From Oscillospiraceae bacterium (GTDB lineage: Bacteria > Bacillota > Clostridia > Oscillospirales > Ruminococcaceae): DNA of 34,708 bases. The stretch lies in assembly GCA_031551695.1 (NCBI GenBank), contig JAVBNG010000056.1:1-34708 (forward strand). The letters run 5' to 3'. Every line of letters starts with the position of its first letter. Positions within the stretch are counted from its first letter, which is position 1. The position numbers and the translations under genes are program-made. The notes beneath the pieces were generated by a model, which did not search any database, was not told the DNA's origin, and was given only the letters and a program-made list of their open reading frames with translations. Of the stretch, positions 6,617-31,699 are shown one piece after another.

Positions 6617-8218
6617 CTAAACGGTCGTTTCGACAAACACCGGCTGCTGCGGGGCTTCGGGCATCCCGCTAATGTTCAGGTTTCTGGTGGTCTGCCCCTC
6701 AAATGTTTTGGCGCGCATGACCTCTTTCAAGTCAAACCCCACGGTTTCCTGCAGGGCTTCGCTTACCGCCACAAGGCCGCTGGTCACGTAACCGGCCACG
6801 TCGCTCACGCCGTCGCCGCCGGCGTTTCCGCCGCCGATAATGGTGATTTTATCGATGCTTGCAAAGGGCTCGGCCACGGCCTTGGCAAGCGCCGGCAGAA
6901 TGTCCGCGATGATCTGCAGCTTGCCCGCCTCGTCCATCTTGGCAAGGGCCTCAGCCTTCTTTTCCAGCGCCTCTGCCTCGGCCAGGCCCTTGGCCCGGAT
7001 GGCGTCGGCTTCCGCCTGGCCGCGCGCTTCAATGATCTTGGCCTCGGCATTGCCCCAAAGCTCTTGGGCTTTGGCCTGGGCCTCGCCGTCCAGCCGGGTC
7101 TTCTCCGCTTCGGCTTCGGCTTTGGCAATCTCTTCAAACTTCCGCGCCTCAGCCTCCAGCCGGCGGCGCTCTTTCTCCGCCTCGGCGGGCTCCAGCACCG
7201 TGGCAATCAACTCCGCCCGGGCGCGTTCCGCCTGGCTTTTGGCCAGCTCGATGTTCTTGTTTTCCTCCGCGATGCGCACCTGCACCTCGGCTTCGGTCAC
7301 TTCCAGCTGGCGGTTCTTTTCCAGCACCAAAGCGTCCAACTGGGTGTTTTTCACTTCTTTCGAGGTAATGTTCGCCTGGATCTCATAGGCCGCGTCGGAC
7401 ACAGCCTTTGTGGTCTCCGATTCCTTTCGGTAGGCCTCCACCTTCAGCTGTTTTTCCTTTTCGGCCAGGGCAATCTCGCTCTCGGCCCGCAGCTGGGCCT
7501 CGCGCCCGGCGCGGCCGGCTTCGGCCGTTTTGATCATCTGCTCCTTTGCCGCCTCGGCGGTTTTGATCTGCTGCTCCTTGGCGGCCTCGGCCTCGGCAAT
7601 GGCTGCTTGGGCCTTCACCTTGGCAATTTGCTCTTTGCCAAGAGACACGATGTATTCTTCGTCGTCGGAGATGTCGTTGATGGTAAAGGATTTGATTTCA
7701 AGGCCCATGGTGCCGAGGGCGGAGTCTACCACCTTTTGCACGTCGGTGGAGAATTTCTCCCGGTCGTCGTACAGTTCTTCCACGCTCATGCGGGAGACGA
7801 TTTCGCGCAGCTTGCCCGTGGCCACCTCCATCACGATGTTCTGGATGGCCTTTTTGGTGGCGGCCTCGTTCTCACTGCTGAACTGCTGCACCGCGGTGAT
7901 GATACTCTCGTTTTCGGCCTTCACTTTTACAATGAGCACGCCGTTGGCGTTGATGGGCACGCCCAGGCGGGTTTTTGTTTTGCTGATGGAAACGTTGATC
8001 TGGATGTTTTCAAGGGTGATGGTGTCTATGCGCTGGAAACCGGGAATGACCATCTTACCCCCGCCGTGCACCACTTTGGGCGCGCCCAGGCCCACGATGA
8101 CGGCGGCCTTGTCGGACGGAACCTTTTTCCACGCGCTCAGCAGGCAAATCATGACGACCACAAGGGCGGCGATGATCACGATGGCCACGCCAAAGGGGCT
8201 TGTGAGTAAATTCAACAT
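6617..8218 (-). CDS. floT: Flotillin-family protein (SPFH/Band-7 domain plus Ala/Glu-rich flotillin repeats), FloT/YuaG-like
   Basis: N-terminal TM helix. SPFH core (VPINANGVLIVKV ... ). Long EA/KA-rich coiled-coil repeats (AEAEAAKEQ ...). The 533-aa size is typical of FloT. Confidence 0.85.
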   Translation of the reverse strand: MLNLLTSPFGVAIVIIAALVVVMICLLSAWKKVPSDKAAVIVGLGAPKVVHGGGKMVIPGFQRIDTITLENIQINVSISKTKTRLGVPINANGVLIVKVKAENESIITAVQQFSSENEAATKKAIQNIVMEVATGKLREIVSRMSVEELYDDREKFSTDVQKVVDSALGTMGLEIKSFTINDISDDEEYIVSLGKEQIAKVKAQAAIAEAEAAKEQQIKTAEAAKEQMIKTAEAGRAGREAQLRAESEIALAEKEKQLKVEAYRKESETTKAVSDAAYEIQANITSKEVKNTQLDALVLEKNRQLEVTEAEVQVRIAEENKNIELAKSQAERARAELIATVLEPAEAEKERRRLEAEARKFEEIAKAEAEAEKTRLDGEAQAKAQELWGNAEAKIIEARGQAEADAIRAKGLAEAEALEKKAEALAKMDEAGKLQIIADILPALAKAVAEPFASIDKITIIGGGNAGGDGVSDVAGYVTSGLVAVSEALQETVGFDLKEVMRAKTFEGQTTRNLNISGMPEAPQQPVFVETTV

Positions 8219-25929: not shown

Positions 25930-25968
25930 AAATAGCCCGGGCAGCTTGCCGCCCGGGCTGTTTCGTTT
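25930..25968. terminator. Bidirectional terminator between the BMP lipoprotein gene and the convergent metal-transport operon
   Basis: agcccgggc ... gcccgggct stem followed by GTTTCGTTTGG. Preceded by AAAAATA. Confidence 0.5.
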
Positions 25969-25986: not shown

Positions 25987-26139
25987 TCAATGCTTGTGCT
26001 CTTCCTTGTGCTCATGGCCGTGGTCATGGCTGTCCTTTTTTACAGGGTTGCCGTTTTCGTCCAGTTCCTCTTCCGTGCCAAACAAGTCGTCCATATCCTC
26101 AAGGTCGTCCAAAATCCCGTGATGTCCCTCGTGCATCAT
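25987..26139 (-). CDS. Small ORF (50 aa) encoding an acidic His-rich peptide MMHEGHHGILDDLEDMDDLFGTEEELDENGNPVKKDSHDHGHEHKEEHKH. Absent from the supplied ORF track.
   Basis: Translated by hand from the minus strand. A strong AAAGGAGGTG RBS lies 6 nt before the ATG-ATG. It sits 34 nt downstream of the 194-aa gene in the ATPase operon. 9 of 50 residues are His. Confidence 0.5.
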   Translation of the reverse strand: MMHEGHHGILDDLEDMDDLFGTEEELDENGNPVKKDSHDHGHEHKEEHKH

Positions 26140-26173: not shown

Positions 26174-26758
26174 TCATTCCGGGTCGTACAGGTACATCCG
26201 CTTGGCTTTGTAATTGGTTTCGCAAGTCTCTATCCAATCCTCCGGGATCTCCCCCAAGGGAAAGCGCGCCACCATGCAAGGCTCAATGTAGCCGGGAAAA
26301 ATGGAGCGGTCCTCCGGCAAAACGTCGCTTTCATAGCACAAAATTTCAAGGCCGTGCTTGTAAACGCTCAGGGTTTCGGCGTCCAGGTCGATATGGTACT
26401 GCCAGCGGCAGCGCCACCCCAGCAAAAACGAGCTGTAATCCACCATGAAGGGGTAACGATCCCGGATGGGGGCAAGGGCGTCCTTCGTATATTTCAGCGC
26501 CTCCACCCAGCCGAAATCGTCCGTCCAGGTTTGTTCGGGCATATATTTTTTGTAGCCCTCGCGCTGGGCGGGCGTCATCGGGTCGTCTTGGTTTACCAAT
26601 GTAATGCCGTCGTATATTTCGCATAGTTCATTAACGGAATTTTCCCGGCAGAACGCCACCACTCGCCTGCCCATCACGCGCAGCTCCGCGTTGCGGTGCA
26701 CATAGCTCGCTTTTTGCCTGCCGTCCTTTATCAGGACGATCACACCTTTTTTTGCCAT
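26174..26758 (-). CDS. Hypothetical cytoplasmic protein (194 aa) with no recognisable family, co-operonic with the P1B ATPase
   Basis: The ATG at 26758 (MAKKGVIVLIKDG ...) lies 13 nt after the ATPase stop. The N-terminal 28 codons of the ORF-track entry overlap the ATPase gene. Confidence 0.6.
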   Translation of the reverse strand: MAKKGVIVLIKDGRQKASYVHRNAELRVMGRRVVAFCRENSVNELCEIYDGITLVNQDDPMTPAQREGYKKYMPEQTWTDDFGWVEALKYTKDALAPIRDRYPFMVDYSSFLLGWRCRWQYHIDLDAETLSVYKHGLEILCYESDVLPEDRSIFPGYIEPCMVARFPLGEIPEDWIETCETNYKAKRMYLYDPE

Positions 26759-26771
26759 GTTCCGCCCCTTT

Positions 26772-28697
26772 CTATTTTTCGCCCGCGAATTTCCAGCCCA
26801 GCAGGCGGGACGAGTTGAGCACGACGAAAATGGACGACGCATTGTGGATGATGGCGGCTAAAATCGGGTTCAAAAAACCGAGGCCCGACAGCGCGATGCC
26901 GATGACATTCACGAATACGGCAAACACCCAAATATTTTGCTGGATGATGCGGTAGGTGCGGCGGCACAGGGCAAAAATGGCGGGCAGAGCGTCGATATTG
27001 TCCGACATCAGGGTGATGGACGCCGCCTCAATGGCAACGTCCGTGCCCGCGGCCCCCATGGCGATGCCCACGTCCGCCAGCGCCAGCGCGGGCGCGTCGT
27101 TCACGCCGTCGCCCACCATGGCCACCACTTCGCCCTTCGCCTTCATTTCTTTAATGGCGTCCAGCTTTTCCTCCGGCAGCAGGTTCGCCTTGAACTCGTC
27201 AATGCCCGCCTCGGCGCAAATGGCCTTCGCCGTGTACTCGTTGTCGCCGGTCAGCATCACGATATGCTGGATGCCGATGTCCCTTAGCTTTTGCATGGAA
27301 GCAGGCACGGTTTCGCGGATGGTGTCCGCCACAGAGAGCGCCCCCAGCACCCGGCCGTCCTTCACGGCAACCAGCGCCGTGCGGCCAAAGCTCTCTTCCT
27401 GCCGCACAAAGGGCATGATTTCGTCCGCTCCCGCGGGGGCGTCCTCCAGCAGCTTTTTGTTCGAAACCTCATACACCGCGCCGTTGTCCACAGCCTTCAC
27501 GCCCCGGCCAAACAGCATTTCAAATTCGGCGTTGGGGATGTCTTTCATCCTCATCTGTTTTTGGCCTGTTAAAAACGAAACAACGGCCTTTGCAATGGGG
27601 TGGTTCGAGTTCTTCTCGCAAACAGCCAAGCTATACAAAAACTCTTCCTCCGAAGCGCCCGGGGCAACCTGCGTCGCAATCACCTCCGGCGTACCGTTTG
27701 TGATGGTGCCGGTTTTATCAAGGCACAGGGTGGTCACTTTGGCGCTTGTTTCAATGGCCACGCCGCCTTTGATGAGCACGCCGCGCTTGGCCCGGTTGCC
27801 CACGCTGGCCACCACCGCCGTGGGCGTGGCCAGCACCAGCGCGCAGGGGCACGCGATGACAAGGATGGTCATCACACGCATGATGTCCCGCGTGATGAGG
27901 AACGTGATGACGCAGATGACAAGGATGATGGGCAAAAAATACTGGGCGAACACGTCGGCGGATTTTTGGGCGTCGCCCTTGTTCTCCTGCGCGGCCTTCA
28001 CCGTGGCGATGATTTTGCCCAGCACGGTGTTGCTGCCCAGCTTTTCCGCCTCTATCTCAATCACGCCGGTCTCGTTCAACGTGCCCACAAACACCTTGTC
28101 GCCCACGGTTTTGTCCGCCGGCATGGACTCGCCCGTGATGGACGCCTCGTTGATGGCGGCCTGCCCCTTTTTGATCACGCCGTCTACCGCTATTTTTTCG
28201 CCCGCGCGCACCTGGATCATGCTGCCCACGCGCACGCTTTTCAGCGGCACTTCTTTGTACTCGCCGTCCACCAGCATACGGCAGGTGGGCGGCACCAGGC
28301 GAATGAGCTCCCGCACGGCGTTTTTGGTTTTCTCCATGGTCAAATCTTCCAAAAACTCGCCGAAGATCATCATGAACGCCACAATGGCGCCGGACAGGTA
28401 TTCCCCCACCGCCGTGGTGCCGATGAGGGCCAGCACCACCAGCATGCCCGCGGTGATTTTCTTTTTGGCGATGGTTGCCTGCACGGTGGACTTGATAACG
28501 AACACCCCGCCCAGAACAAGCGGGAGGATGGACACGGGGAACGGAATGACCCCCACCCACAAATAATCGAACAGCGCGCCCAGAACGATGAGCACCGCCA
28601 GCACGGCGGGGAAAATGAACACTTTAAAATTAAAAGACGATTTTTTCTTCGCCTTTTGGGCCGCAGCCGCTGCAGCCGGCTGTTTCACTGCTTCCAT
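26772..28697 (-). CDS. P1B-type heavy-metal translocating ATPase with no N-terminal metal-binding (HMA/CxxC) domain
   Basis: CPC motif in VIACPCALVLATPTAV. DKTGTIT phosphorylation site. GDGVNDAPAL hinge. HNASSIFVVLNS in the last TM. The ATG at 28697 has a GGGAGG RBS. The GTG at 28727 from the ORF track is probably upstream leader. Confidence 0.85.
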   Translation of the reverse strand: MEAVKQPAAAAAAQKAKKKSSFNFKVFIFPAVLAVLIVLGALFDYLWVGVIPFPVSILPLVLGGVFVIKSTVQATIAKKKITAGMLVVLALIGTTAVGEYLSGAIVAFMMIFGEFLEDLTMEKTKNAVRELIRLVPPTCRMLVDGEYKEVPLKSVRVGSMIQVRAGEKIAVDGVIKKGQAAINEASITGESMPADKTVGDKVFVGTLNETGVIEIEAEKLGSNTVLGKIIATVKAAQENKGDAQKSADVFAQYFLPIILVICVITFLITRDIMRVMTILVIACPCALVLATPTAVVASVGNRAKRGVLIKGGVAIETSAKVTTLCLDKTGTITNGTPEVIATQVAPGASEEEFLYSLAVCEKNSNHPIAKAVVSFLTGQKQMRMKDIPNAEFEMLFGRGVKAVDNGAVYEVSNKKLLEDAPAGADEIMPFVRQEESFGRTALVAVKDGRVLGALSVADTIRETVPASMQKLRDIGIQHIVMLTGDNEYTAKAICAEAGIDEFKANLLPEEKLDAIKEMKAKGEVVAMVGDGVNDAPALALADVGIAMGAAGTDVAIEAASITLMSDNIDALPAIFALCRRTYRIIQQNIWVFAVFVNVIGIALSGLGFLNPILAAIIHNASSIFVVLNSSRLLGWKFAGEK

Positions 28698-28727
28698 GGT
28701 CGCGCCTCCCTCAGTCTTGCATCCCAC

Positions 28728-28785
28728 ATCCCCCCATGGGGGTTATTCTTGTGTTCATTATATGCCCCTTGCCGCGGGTTGTCAA
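28728..28785 (-). promoter_or_regulatory. Promoter-operator module A: TTGACA (28785-28780), 17 nt, TATAAT (28762-28757), then the palindrome ATCCCCCCATGGGGGTTAT (28728-28746) in the leader of the ATPase operon
   Basis: Consensus hexamers with ideal 17-nt spacing, read on the minus strand. The C6-AT-G5 tract palindrome flanked by AT matches the CsoR/RcnR operator architecture. Confidence 0.6.
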
Positions 28786-29837
28786 GCGGGAAAACCAGCC
28801 AGTTCACGAATCACTTGCGAAAGGCACCGGTACGCCAGCAACAGCGACGCTTCGGAAATATATTCGCCCTTGCCGTGGATGCCGCCCACGCGGTTGCCCG
28901 GGTGCAGCGGAAAAAAGCCCAGCACCGGCAGGCCCGCCGCGCGGAAGTGCCGGTTGTCGCTTTGGCCGGGGGCAATGTAGGGCATGGCGCCCCACGCGTG
29001 CTCCATTGCCCGCAGCACACCCGATATGGCAGGCAATGCGCGCCGGTACAGTGCCGAAGATGGCATCCGCGCATATTCCGGCGCTTCCAGCAGTGCCGCA
29101 AGGCCGCTGTAAAAATGCCGCTGCGGAATGTGCCGCCCGCCAAAAAGCCCCGGCAGCGCCCGGATGTAACCCAGCGTGGTTTCGTCGTAAAGGCCGAGGA
29201 CGGCGGCGCGGCGGTACAGTGCCTGCTGTTTTTCCAACGAGGGCGGCGCGCCCGGCCCATCGGCCTTTTGCAGGCCCATTTCTCCGGTTTGCACAGTGAA
29301 CAGCCACTTATCCCCCATCGGCACCGGAATGCCGCCGCCTTCCCCCAGCACAAGGGCCACGCGGCGGAACACGTCCGTTTGCTCCAACAGCCACTTTGTG
29401 CCAAGCTCGCCGCCGGTTTCTTCATCGGCGGTTGCGGCAAACAGCACGGTTTTTTGCGGCGTGCGGCCGCTTTGCGCCATGGCGCACAGCACATGGGCCC
29501 AAACGGCGGCGTTGCCCTTGCAGTCCAGCGTGCCGCGGCCGTACAGCCTGCCGTTTTTGCGCACAAGCCGCGTGGAAGAAACGCCTACGGGCGTTTCATA
29601 GGCGGCGGTGTCCAGGTGGGTGTGCACCAAAATGCTTTCCTCGCTTCGCCCGGGTATTCGCGCCACCAGGCTCCCCCGGCCGGGAAGGGGCTCGTGCAGC
29701 GTGTTTTCCACGCCGCACCGCCGGAAAAAGGCATCCAAAATTTCGGCCGCCCGCGTTTCGTTATGCGCCGGGGGCGTTGTATCGGTATTGACAAGCCCGG
29801 AGAGAAGTGCAATCATAGAAGCAAGCATATCCCCCAT
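28782..29837 (-). CDS. M20-family metallopeptidase (ArgE/DapE/PepV/aminoacylase-like)
   Basis: Motifs HTHLDTA and GRGTLDCKG (compare HxDVV and GRGAxDxKG of M20), and the ATADEETGGELG metal-ligand region. The true start is downstream of promoter B (ATG at 29837, 29828 or 29816). The ORF-track TTG at 29891 lies inside the -35 hexamer. Confidence 0.75.
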   Translation of the reverse strand: MGDMLASMIALLSGLVNTDTTPPAHNETRAAEILDAFFRRCGVENTLHEPLPGRGSLVARIPGRSEESILVHTHLDTAAYETPVGVSSTRLVRKNGRLYGRGTLDCKGNAAVWAHVLCAMAQSGRTPQKTVLFAATADEETGGELGTKWLLEQTDVFRRVALVLGEGGGIPVPMGDKWLFTVQTGEMGLQKADGPGAPPSLEKQQALYRRAAVLGLYDETTLGYIRALPGLFGGRHIPQRHFYSGLAALLEAPEYARMPSSALYRRALPAISGVLRAMEHAWGAMPYIAPGQSDNRHFRAAGLPVLGFFPLHPGNRVGGIHGKGEYISEASLLLAYRCLSQVIRELAGFPA

Positions 29838-29891
29838 CCCCCCATATGGTAACTGTGTTCGCAGTATATGCCCGGCGGGGGTTTCTGTCAA
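29827..29891 (-). promoter_or_regulatory. Promoter-operator module B: TTGACA (29891-29886), 17 nt, TATACT (29868-29863), then the G/C-tract element ATAT-C5-AT-C6-ATATGG (29827-29849) upstream of the M20 gene. It also lies in the intergenic region before the divergent CsoR-like gene.
   Basis: About 65 bp shares blocks with module A (tgtcaagcggg, tatatgccc, tgtgttc, C/G tracts), read directly. Confidence 0.6.
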
Positions 29892-29934: not shown

Positions 29935-30246
29935 ATGGACGACCACGGCCACGGCCATTCCCACACCCATTCGCCGGAGGATTACCAGCGGATGATCAAC
30001 CGCATGTCCCGCATCGTGGGCCACGCAAACGCCATCAAAAGCATGATGGAGGAACAGCGCGACTGCACGGAAATTCTGGTGCAAATTTCCGCCGTGCAGG
30101 CGGCGCTGAACAACCTTGGCAAGCTGATGCTGAAGGACCACATCGACCAGTGCATCGTGCACGCCATCGACGGCTCCACCGGCGAAGAGGAAAAAAAACG
30201 GGTGCTGAACAGCCTGAATGAGGCGATCGAAAAATTTATCCGTTAG
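29935..30246 (+). CDS. CsoR/RcnR-family (DUF156) metal-sensing transcriptional repressor with a His-rich N-terminal extension
   Basis: Family signature QRMINRMSRIVGHANAIKSMMEEQRDCTEILVQISAVQAALNNLGKLMLKDHIDQC. Ligand positions Cys (RDC) and His..Cys (HIDQC). N-terminus MDDHGHGHSHTHS. GGAGGTG RBS. Confidence 0.75.
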   Translation: MDDHGHGHSHTHSPEDYQRMINRMSRIVGHANAIKSMMEEQRDCTEILVQISAVQAALNNLGKLMLKDHIDQCIVHAIDGSTGEEEKKRVLNSLNEAIEKFIR

Positions 30247-30430: not shown

Positions 30431-31699
30431 ATGAGCGGCTATAATGCGGTATTGGCACGAAATACGAACGACGCACCGAACAATGCGTTGTATTCACAAA
30501 CGGTGGCTTTTTCCCACTACAACAACCTTTCGGCCCAGCTGCCCGCAGACCCCGCAACCGGCAAACTGGTGGCGGGCGGCGTGAAAGAGCAGACACAGCA
30601 GTGCTTCAAAAACATCGAGGCCGTGGTAAACAGCATCGGCCACGTGATGAGCGACGTCGTGCGCATCAGCGTGTTCGTGCGTGACATCAAGGACGTGGAC
30701 GCGGTGGACGAGGTGTACAAAACCTTCTTCCCCACCTATGTGCCCACGCGCACAACGGCCGCCGTGGCGGCCCTGCCCATGGACGCACTGGTGCAGGTGG
30801 AAGCGCTGGTCTCCAACGGCGAGGGCACCATTCCAAACGCGCCGCAGGCGGGCGATTTGATCAAGCTGGCAAACAACACGGCAAACGCGCCGGTAAGCGC
30901 CCTGTCCTCGCAGACGGTGGCGTTCTCCCATTACAACAACCTTTCGGCCCAGCTGCCCATCGACCCGAAAACCGGACGCCTGGTGCCGGGCGGCGCGGCG
31001 GCGCAGGCTGCCCAGTGCCTTGCGAACATCAAGGCCATTTTGGAAAGCATAGACGTTCCGTTGGATGATATTGTGAAAATGAACGTCTTTTTGACGAACC
31101 CGGCAAACAACAAGGCCGTGAACGAGGTGTACACCACCTTCTTCCCGGACTCCGGCATCGCCCGCGCCGCGGCCTACATGCCCGCGCGCACCACCATCGT
31201 CGCCGACGCTTTGCCCATGGGCGCTTTGGTGCAGATGGAAGCCGTGGTGTCCCACGGGGACGGCACGCCCCCGCAGGCGGTGGAGGACCGGCATGGCCTG
31301 ATTATTGAGGCAAACAACACGGACAGCGCGCCGAAAAGCCCGCTCTCCACGCAAACGGTGGCCTTCTCGCACTACAACCATCTTTCCGCCCAACTGCCGC
31401 GAGACCCGAAAACCGGCAAAACCGTGGCCGGCGGCGCAAAGGAGCAGGCGGCCCAGTGCCTTGCCAACATCAAGGCCATTGTGGAGAGCATCGGCCACGC
31501 CATGGCCGACGTGGTGAAAGTGAATATCTTCGTCAAAAACATCGCCGACATCGGCGCGGTGGACGAGGCCTACAAAACCTACTTCCCCGGTGGCGTGCCC
31601 GCGCGGAAGGTTTTGGGCGTGTCCGCCCTGCCGGACGACGCACTTGTTCAAATAGACGCCGTTGTGGCGAACGAGGAAGGGACGCCGCCCGTCGCATAA
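30431..31699 (+). CDS. Single polypeptide with three tandem RidA/YjgF/TdcF (endoribonuclease L-PSP, reactive-enamine/imine deaminase) domains
   Basis: Each domain of about 140 aa carries the RidA pattern (SQTVAFSHYNxLSAQLPxDPxTG ... AQCLANIKAI ... VVKxNxFxxN ... VDEVYxTFFP ... PAR ... ALP ... LVQxEAVV). The three copies are visible as about 420-bp DNA repeats. Confidence 0.8.
   Translation: MSGYNAVLARNTNDAPNNALYSQTVAFSHYNNLSAQLPADPATGKLVAGGVKEQTQQCFKNIEAVVNSIGHVMSDVVRISVFVRDIKDVDAVDEVYKTFFPTYVPTRTTAAVAALPMDALVQVEALVSNGEGTIPNAPQAGDLIKLANNTANAPVSALSSQTVAFSHYNNLSAQLPIDPKTGRLVPGGAAAQAAQCLANIKAILESIDVPLDDIVKMNVFLTNPANNKAVNEVYTTFFPDSGIARAAAYMPARTTIVADALPMGALVQMEAVVSHGDGTPPQAVEDRHGLIIEANNTDSAPKSPLSTQTVAFSHYNHLSAQLPRDPKTGKTVAGGAKEQAAQCLANIKAIVESIGHAMADVVKVNIFVKNIADIGAVDEAYKTYFPGGVPARKVLGVSALPDDALVQIDAVVANEEGTPPVA

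Follow-up and report, generated by a model that had tools for sequence, protein, structure and literature searches.

A predicted metal-efflux operon of an Oscillospiraceae bacterium combines a P1B-type ATPase lacking a metal-binding domain with a phage-related protein and a short acidic peptide

To our knowledge, pumps of the P1B-6 type are essentially uncharacterised except for CtpC and its partner PacL1. The present analysis concerns a predicted metal-efflux operon around positions 26174 to 28697 of contig JAVBNG010000056.1 of an Oscillospiraceae bacterium (assembly GCA_031551695.1), in which a P1B-type ATPase without an N-terminal metal-binding domain (MBD) is followed by the gene for a 194-residue soluble protein, here called p194; the whole stretch of DNA that was analysed, positions 1 to 34,708 of the contig (34,708 nucleotides), is referred to as the window. 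In the papers on M. tuberculosis CtpC, 'P1B-6-like' denotes pumps with CPC in transmembrane helix (TM) 4 and a conserved HN in TM6, and the hallmark is given as N-X18-H-N-X-(S/T) (PMC9374683, PMC13460109). The window shares with the CtpC/PacL1 system the CPC in M4 and the H-N-x-S in M6, a small partner encoded in the operon (often with a metal-binding His/Asp-rich tail, both among PacL1-type partners and here) and efflux that is metal-induced there and predicted to be so here (PMC9374683, PMC13460109). The likeness to CtpC is at the level of motifs only, with a spacing of N-X20-HN here against X18 there. CtpC keeps an N-terminal MBD, which the window pump lacks; PacL1 is anchored in the membrane, belongs to DUF1490 and has Glu/Ala repeats, whereas the peptide found here is soluble, begins with MHEG and has no Pfam match; and nothing in the CtpC system corresponds to p194.

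Among solved structures, the best relative of the pump is the P1B-4 ATPase sCoaT (7qbz; PMC8880997), with an E-value of 6e-102 over residues 29-636 of the pump and 46-675 of 7qbz. The two share the lack of a classical heavy-metal-binding domain (HMBD), eight TM helices, a GG kink in MB and an aligned M6 His. They differ in that the SPC of sCoaT is CPC in the pump (M4 ACPCALVLATP against ASPCALAIATP), in that HEGxT becomes HNASS, with Glu changed to Asn (M6 IHNASS against VHEGST, only the His being kept), and in the N-tail of the pump, which is without metal-ligand residues. No chaperone is known for P1B-4 pumps according to the sCoaT structure paper (PMC8880997). On the regulatory side, the closest described system is InrS-nrsD of Synechocystis (5fmn; PMC3320959, PMC7055735), whose repressor, like that of the window, has H-C-H-C as its metal ligands and an N-terminal extension rich in His. 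InrS represses its efflux gene via a palindromic operator, and we propose the same layout here; the exporter under InrS is the protein NrsD of the major facilitator superfamily, whereas that under the window repressor is a P-type ATPase.

The operon and the class of its pump

The conserved pump module is a metal-efflux operon in a new variant form, compact and widely distributed, that consists of an InrS-like repressor, an M20 peptidase, an MBD-less pump with CPC and HN motifs, an optional p194 and a short peptide beginning with MHEG. In the window, three genes (for the MBD-less pump, p194 and a 49-residue peptide) lie between a promoter/operator and a single terminator, and a divergent InrS-like repressor gene and an M20 peptidase gene lie upstream of them. 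The presence of both the repressor and a conserved operator suggests that the operon is a repressor-controlled, presumably metal-derepressed, efflux unit, and judging from sequence we consider it very probable both that this is an operon and that it serves efflux. The features are listed below, with the evidence for each in brackets.

25934-25959, minus strand: intrinsic terminator of the pump-p194-peptide transcript (11-bp stem with 9 GC pairs, then ATTTTTGT)
25987-26136, minus strand: 49-residue acidic peptide MHEGHHGILDDLEDMDDLFG with a His-rich tail (strong ribosome-binding site (RBS) AAAGGAGGTGA)
26174-26758, minus strand: p194, 194 aa, soluble and acidic (pI 5.1), of the pump-linked clade of the phrog_30528 superfamily (open reading frame (ORF) list, profile searches)
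26772-28697, minus strand: P1B ATPase gene, 641 aa, no HMA domain (ORF list, Pfam, NCBIfam, motifs)
28728-28746, no strand assigned: CsoR/InrS-type operator, palindrome ATAACCCCCATGGGGGGAT, C5-AT-G6 (directly downstream of the -10 box)
28757-28785, minus strand: sigma-70 promoter of the pump operon, TTGACA-17-TATAAT (12/12 consensus matches, the best site of the region)
28782-29837, minus strand: M20 family metallopeptidase, ~348-351 aa, start codon uncertain (Pfam Peptidase_M20, E 1.5e-22)
29935-30246, plus strand, divergent: CsoR/RcnR-family repressor, InrS-like, 103 aa, with a His-rich N-terminus MDDHGHGHSHTH (Pfam PF02583, E 1.9e-23)

The promoter lies between the M20 gene, upstream, and the pump. 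The ATPase ORF in full spans 26772-28727 on the minus strand; the ATG at 28697, which gives the N-terminus MEAVKQPAAAAAAQKAKKKSSFNFKVFIFPAV and is preceded by the RBS GAGGGAGG, is the likelier start because the alternative GTG at 28727 falls within the operator. The distance between the pump stop (26772-26774) and the p194 ATG (26758) is exactly 13 nt, as a preliminary description of this DNA had stated, and the RBS of p194 is AAAGGGG. The peptide ORF, which was absent from that description, lies 34 nt after p194 and ahead of the terminator, and encodes MHEGHHGILDDLEDMDDLFGTEEELDENGNPVKKDSHDHGHEHKEEHKH; an alternative start at 26139 would give 50 aa (MMHEG...). A palindrome like that of the operator (AT-rich flank, C4-5, N2-4, G4-7) was found in six comparison loci, given by L numbers here and below (L001, L003, L006, L008, L009, L010), immediately upstream of the pump or of a small-ORF-pump pair; L007 yielded no copy of it. 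An Rfam scan of the whole window returned no riboswitch, the NiCo element included. A sequence at the M20 5' end (29818-29838, minus strand), ATATGGGGGGATGGGGGATAT, has AT-rich flanks and G-tracts as in the operator; it is a direct and not an inverted repeat and may be a degenerate operator. A true second operator occurs at the equivalent position of L006 (4934).

The CPC, DKTGT and GDGxNDxP motifs from which the ATPase had been recognised were all found where they had been reported. The motifs stand at these residues: TGES at 188-191, CPC at 283-285, DKTGT at 327-331, GDGVNDAP at 529-536 and HNASS at 618-622; the GG kink is LGGVF, residues 62-66, in MB. The pump scores 561.5 bits against NCBIfam TIGR01525 (heavy-metal P1B ATPase; cut-off 346), which places it among the P1B-type ATPases. 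The absence of an N-terminal MBD or HMA domain also held: Pfam finds E1-E2_ATPase and Hydrolase only, and ahead of helix MA there is only a 25-residue Lys/Ala tail without Cys or His.

Subgroup definitions were taken from PMC3573892 (motif table), PMC8880997 (P1B-4), PMC13460109 (P1B-6 SCA) and PMC9374683 (P1B-6-like). P1B-1 (Cu+/Ag+) pumps have CPC in M4, YN in M5, MxxSS in M6 and one or more N-terminal HMA domains (PMC3573892); the window pump has the CPC, but its M5 reads FVN, without Tyr, its M6 reads HNASS, with His for Met, and it has no HMA domain. P1B-2 (Zn/Cd/Pb) pumps have CPC(X)4S in M4, Lys in M5 and Asp-Gly in M6 (PMC3573892), and here Ala stands at the Ser position, with neither the M5 Lys nor the M6 DG. 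The earlier difficulty in assigning the last TM helix to the Cu or the Zn/Cd subgroup is therefore borne out, as the pump has neither signature. The P1B-4 motif class (Co/Zn/Fe/Ni; SPC in M4, HEGxT in M6; PMC8880997) does not accommodate CPC and HNASS, and what the pump has of P1B-4 is the architecture, i.e. no classical HMBD, MA/MB plus M1-M6 (8 helices), the GG kink and the invariant M6 His. Canonical P1B-6 pumps have SCA in M4 (PMC13460109), in place of which all 120 of the closest homologues have CPC. Alignment to subgroup signatures, which the preliminary description had proposed for predicting the substrate, thus fails for P1B-1, P1B-2, the P1B-4 motifs and SCA, and succeeds for the P1B-6-like motif pair, ACPC (282-285) in M4 and HNAS (618-621) in M6. 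The pump is probably P1B-6-like, an assignment made by motif alone.

A homologue search with the pump returned 7913 proteins at E < 1e-50. Among the closest 120 (59-80% identity, 620-685 aa) CPC is present in 120/120, an HMA domain in none and HN[AC]SS in M6 in 118, the remaining two being of the HNTSS/HNVSS/HNISS type or HNAAS. Since it is common to these homologues, the CPC/HN signature is not peculiar to the window pump, which is a member of a very large P1B clade with a recognised but poorly studied signature.

Conservation of the module, p194 and the MHEG peptide

Seven loci (L007, L008, L009, L010, L032, L033, L034) were obtained via the pump protein alone and are therefore unbiased with respect to its partners. 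The MHEG ORF is present in 7/7 of them and the M20 gene in 6/6 of those that could be assessed. A p194 relative is present in 4/7 (L007, L032, L034 and, split into 129 + 99 aa, L033) and absent from L008, L009 and L010. Over all loci we distinguish three architectures. In architecture A the order is M20, pump, p194, peptide (the window, L001, L003, L006, L007, L015, L019, L032, L034), and in architecture B it is p194, pump, M20, peptide (L013, L027). Architecture C consists of an HMA protein, a P1B-2-type pump, an ArsR-type regulator and a 243-aa p194 relative (L021, L023-L026); its pump is likewise MBD-less and has SCPC, the M5 Lys and ADVG in M6 (e.g. L024 2040-5720), and an M20 gene, a second pump of HN type (HNAGS) and a LysR gene are often nearby. 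The gaps between p194 and pump genes are 13-39 nt, or the genes overlap, and the identities of pump and p194 to the window proteins correlate (Spearman 0.78, n=12). The idea that p194 is confined to pumps of at least 69% identity was rejected, as it is carried also at L034 (66%), L019 (61%) and L013/L027 (59%).

In terms of gene neighbourhood p194 is truly linked to P1B pumps, in three gene orders and with two pump classes, and no description of this linkage was found in the literature searched. The earlier proposal that the 194-aa protein is coupled to the ATPase thus stands as regards linkage (many loci, predicted co-transcription); p194 is a frequent but dispensable partner, with 3/7 pump-seeded loci lacking it. 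At L033 (2267-2937), next to a pump of 71% identity, overlapping ORFs of 129 and 99 aa take the place of a single p194 gene; the cause is a frameshift, which would make it a pseudogene, or else a fault of the assembly. In the 243-aa relatives (L021, L023-L026) the C-terminus is prolonged by a conserved segment, ..GYNPxDxDWExIKFFYGQNxYN... The pump module or relatives of p194 also occur directly beside ABC importers with a family-5 solute-binding protein (SBP) of Opp/Dpp/Nik type (L013 635-5849, L014 981-2552, L028 337-3832, L010 8814-11926); the neighbour of the p194 relative in L028 is an AstE-like deacylase, L014 has LarB/LarC/LarE and MgtE within 5 kb, and L010 joins the pump module with PIG-L and an Opp-type system.

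p194 contains 5 Trp and 6 Cys, is predicted to be cytoplasmic, and had been described as a soluble Trp/Cys-containing protein of no recognisable family, which agrees with the lack of any match in Pfam, NCBIfam or a PDB sequence-profile search. A word-indexed search returned only 10 homologues, and an exhaustive profile search returned 689 cluster representatives at E up to 1e-3. The p194 profile finds phrog_30528-type proteins, which themselves match phrog_30528 strongly, at E down to 4e-22; for one of them, P0139, the E-values are 3.6e-22 with the A1 profile and 1.6e-21 with the PHROG, and p194 itself matches phrog_30528 directly over residues 3-135 at E 4.5e-4. By these matches p194 belongs to the phrog_30528 superfamily. 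Some of its remote relatives are fused to ArdA or a PcfJ-like domain, and tblastn found others among the hypothetical proteins of phages, namely those of Arthrobacter, Myxococcus and Bacillus and the jumbo Erwinia/Yersinia phages. The remote relatives gave nothing against NCBIfam, plasmid tblastn with p194 gave no match, and a scan of viral_contigs with the p194 alignment found no relative. The p194 clade differs from phrog_30528 in being chromosomal and pump-linked and has diverged at motifs that are conserved in the phage family, MGTRG..GF, YNHxDSYP and CEYAYIINLD. Structure prediction, also proposed earlier as a check, gave a confident model that is not ferredoxin-like and that Foldseek matches to uncharacterised BFVD structures of phages and giant viruses (E 4e-8 to 5e-6), and to no solved structure; p194 is not an HMA/CopZ-type metallochaperone. 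A clear unrelated function, for example in a phage family, had been named as what would speak against a role with the ATPase; the remote phage and giant-virus relatives go part of the way towards this, although the phrog_30528 family is one without known function. Metal-efflux operons would be the first physiological context for this large phage/giant-virus superfamily.

An alignment of 25 p194 members (31-72% identity) has 21 invariant columns, with no Cys or His among them: K4, G5, K11, Y19, R22, G30, M61, Q65, Y72, P74, W84, L88, Y108, R118, Y121, D126, G136, E138, I171, P172 and W175. H21 and C179 are near-invariant only. Conserved Lys, Arg, Tyr, Asp and Glu would suit a surface for contact with a protein or an anionic ligand, or else an active site.

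The peptide of the window belongs to a family with the N-terminal motif MHEGxHGILD..DDLFG. Besides the seven pump-seeded loci it occurs in L001, L003, L006, L013, L015 and L019, upstream or downstream of the pump, and at least 11 distinct loci carry it altogether. A database search found at least 27 members of 40-66 aa with invariant M-H-E-G-x-H-G-I-L-D and D-D-L-F-G; essentially all begin at MHEG, and the invariant N-terminus covers about 20 residues. Many members have a His-rich tail and some have Cys in it, whereas that of others is purely acidic/Lys-rich. We looked for a confinement of His-rich tails to loci without p194 and found no clean pattern. No Pfam match was obtained with the peptides even at E 10, no paper was found in a literature search for the motif strings, and neither the peptide nor p194 resembles PacL, DUF1490 or DUF6110, both lacking a Pfam match and a hydrophobic segment. 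In the AlphaFold model of the peptide only a short helix is formed (residues 13-20, LEDMDDLF) and the rest is unstructured. The net charge of the peptide is about -13, and those of the Lys-rich N-tail and MB' of the pump are +4.5 and +3.7.

The conserved nickel site of HypA is an N-terminal Met-His-Glu, with the amine, His2 and Glu3 as ligands (PMC7055735). An invariant Met-His-Glu stands at the free N-terminus in 27/27 peptide members; the likeness to HypA is confined to this three-residue motif, the peptide having neither the HypA fold nor its Zn-finger domain.

Proposed mechanism, alternatives and metal identity

The best overall explanation, which we hold with modest confidence, is a metal-derepressed efflux operon with the peptide as metal handler and p194 as accessory. 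Excess divalent metal (Ni/Co most likely, then Zn) would bind the H-C-H-C site of the repressor and so release the operator. The peptide would capture the metal at its free N-terminus (amine, His2, Glu3, His6; similar to the MHE site of HypA), often with additional capture by its His/Cys/acid tail. Its acidic helix LEDMDDLF may then dock electrostatically on the platform formed by the Lys-rich N-tail and MB' of the pump, and the docked peptide would either hand the metal over or activate the pump. p194 would be a frequent but dispensable cytoplasmic accessory that originated in a phage-borne family, not a metal carrier, and would most likely work by protein-protein contact as an adaptor, stabiliser or regulator of P1B pumps. 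Taken singly, the proposition that the peptide is a metal-handling partner of the pump has about even chances, and that p194 acts directly on the pump is possible but doubtful.

The preliminary description had suggested that p194 replaces the missing metal-delivery domain as a trans-acting metallochaperone or subunit. Such a role would suit a cytoplasmic acidic protein whose gene lies 13 nt after that of the pump on the same predicted transcript, whose adjacency is kept in many loci and three gene orders, and whose divergence is correlated with that of the pump. However, p194 is absent from L008, L009 and L010 (3/7) though the pumps there are equally MBD-less, its 25 members share Lys/Arg/Tyr/Asp/Glu as their conserved polar set and no invariant Cys or His, its fold is not ferredoxin-like, and the P1B-2 loci of architecture C already have a separate HMA protein. 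The same operon moreover encodes a better candidate, as the substitute metal-delivery role fits the MHEG peptide better than p194. We therefore regard p194 as probably not a substitute MBD, and this reading as improbable. Rather less improbable, though still unlikely, is that p194 is an enzyme or ligand-binding protein that acts on a metal-ligand complex or a by-product of metal stress, together with the M20 protein and peptide/nickel-type ABC importers, and is not a partner of the pump. Its invariant Lys, Arg, Tyr, Asp and Glu are typical of an active or anion-binding site, M20 genes are near its relatives in most loci, several relatives lie directly downstream of family-5 SBP/Opp-Nik-type ABC systems (L013, L014, L021, L028), and the deacylase of L028 and the coupling of PIG-L and an Opp-type system to the pump module in L010 count in its favour; the searches, however, found no likeness to any known enzyme fold or family, the association with the pump (0-40 nt, same transcript) is tighter than that with M20 or ABC genes, and one would not expect such metabolism in the phages and conjugative elements that harbour the wider superfamily. 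The remote phrog_30528 relatives, some with ArdA or PcfJ fusions, the phage tblastn and BFVD fold matches and the patchy distribution of p194 within the pump clade would also suit a passenger from a mobile element (e.g. an anti-defence protein) that was inserted once and has no role with metals. We give this very little credence, as p194 appears in three independent architectures and two pump classes, lies inside the predicted metal-regulated transcript between pump and peptide, and belongs to a clade not found in viral contigs or plasmids, while its 21 invariant columns at 31-72% identity indicate purifying selection. Of the roles considered for p194, adaptor or regulator of P1B pumps comes first, as a tentative choice, and enzymatic activity or ligand handling next.

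The substrate is tentatively taken to be nickel or cobalt, its identity being inferred from the repressor, the N-terminus of the peptide and the His-rich tails. The closest solved homologue of the repressor is InrS (5fmn, E 9.5e-24; best copper CsoR 3e-15), and its H12, C44, H69 and C73 align with the nickel ligands H21, C53, H78 and C82 of InrS. In terms of the InrS ligand set (PMC7055735) and the W-X-Y-Z fingerprint scheme (PMC11672702), the repressor is of the InrS type, i.e. it has the PF02583 fold and H-C-H-C at W-X-Y-Z. Ni/Co is favoured on account of this InrS-like H-C-H-C repressor with its His-rich extension, the MHE N-terminus of the peptide and the His-rich tails, and Ni-related neighbours (HypA/HypB beside L001, LarBCE near L014) point the same way. 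A substrate of Zn(II)/Cd(II), as in CtpC, or of Cu(I), sensed by a CsoR-type repressor, is a somewhat weaker but real possibility. Zn is exported by CtpC, so far the one P1B-6-like pump to have been characterised (PMC9374683), the window pump also passes the generic HMM of the Cd family, TIGR01512 (458 bits, cut-off 313), x-C-H-C also serves as a Cu(I) site in CsoR (PMC11672702), HNASS in M6 resembles the copper motif MxxSS, and a MerR-type regulator is found at L034. Against this stand the greater similarity of the repressor to InrS than to copper CsoR, its W-position His and its His-rich N-terminal extension, the HypA-type start of the peptide, the lack in the pump of the P1B-2 residues (S after CPC-X4, M5 Lys, M6 Asp-Gly) and of the P1B-1 ones (YN, MxxSS), and the nearby HypA/B and LarBCE. 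A relationship with ZccE of S. mutans was weighed and dismissed, since ZccE has SPC and a MerR regulator.

In addition to zinc export by CtpC, several observations weigh against the explanation that we favour. Sites of the InrS type also take up Cu(I) and Zn in vitro (PMC4235346), and the M5-M6 spacing of the pump is N-X20-HNAS, not X18. Other regulators are present at some loci, a different CsoR at L007 and L032 and a MerR-type protein at L034, and the peptide tail has no His at L007 and L032-L034. Relatives of p194 occur without a pump within 5 kb (L012, L014, L028) and at P1B-2 loci without the peptide, from which it follows that the peptide alone cannot be the partner of p194. The regulators are of the following form: the CsoR genes of L007 (3511-3783) and L032 (3449-3724), in Treponema and Spirochaetia, are co-directional and encode x-C-H-C proteins without a His-rich N-terminus, and at L034 (1893-2729), a Lachnospiraceae locus, a long MerR-type protein is paired with the pump module.

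A further-reaching proposal, which we advance as a speculation that is more likely wrong than right, is that the peptide serves MBD-less P1B-6-like pumps as a soluble metallochaperone or activator (for Ni/Co, or Zn) and founds a new class of such proteins, that p194 is a phage-derived, optional second subunit, and that pump, p194 and peptide (with M20) form an 'effluxosome'-like module of Firmicutes and Spirochaetes, analogous but unrelated to PacL/CtpC. If true, the MHEG peptide would be the first cytosolic partner described in the P1B-4/P1B-6 architectural group. The module makes metal acquisition by MBD-less P1B pumps testable in gut and termite-gut anaerobes.

The M20 peptidase and other genes of the window

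The M20 gene has a promoter-like site of its own (29891-29863, 11/12 matches), and the active-site motifs of the protein (HxD, GRG..D and ADEE) look intact. In every locus of the clade that could be assessed it is next to the pump gene, on its upstream or its downstream side, and the loci with an M20 gene besides the window are L001, L003, L006-L010, L013, L015, L019, L023, L026, L027, L032 and L034.

Beyond the repressor, positions 30431-31699 on the plus strand encode a 422-aa protein in which the RidA/YjgF (Endoribonuclease L-PSP) domain occurs three times in tandem (three stretches in Pfam, E 1.2e-72) and which looks like a single-chain form of the usual homotrimer. At 6617-8218 on the minus strand lies the gene for a flotillin-like (SPFH/band-7) protein of 533 aa in which Glu, Ala and Lys make up long coiled-coil repeats, and this accounts for the extreme AT skew of -0.40 at 7-8 kb.

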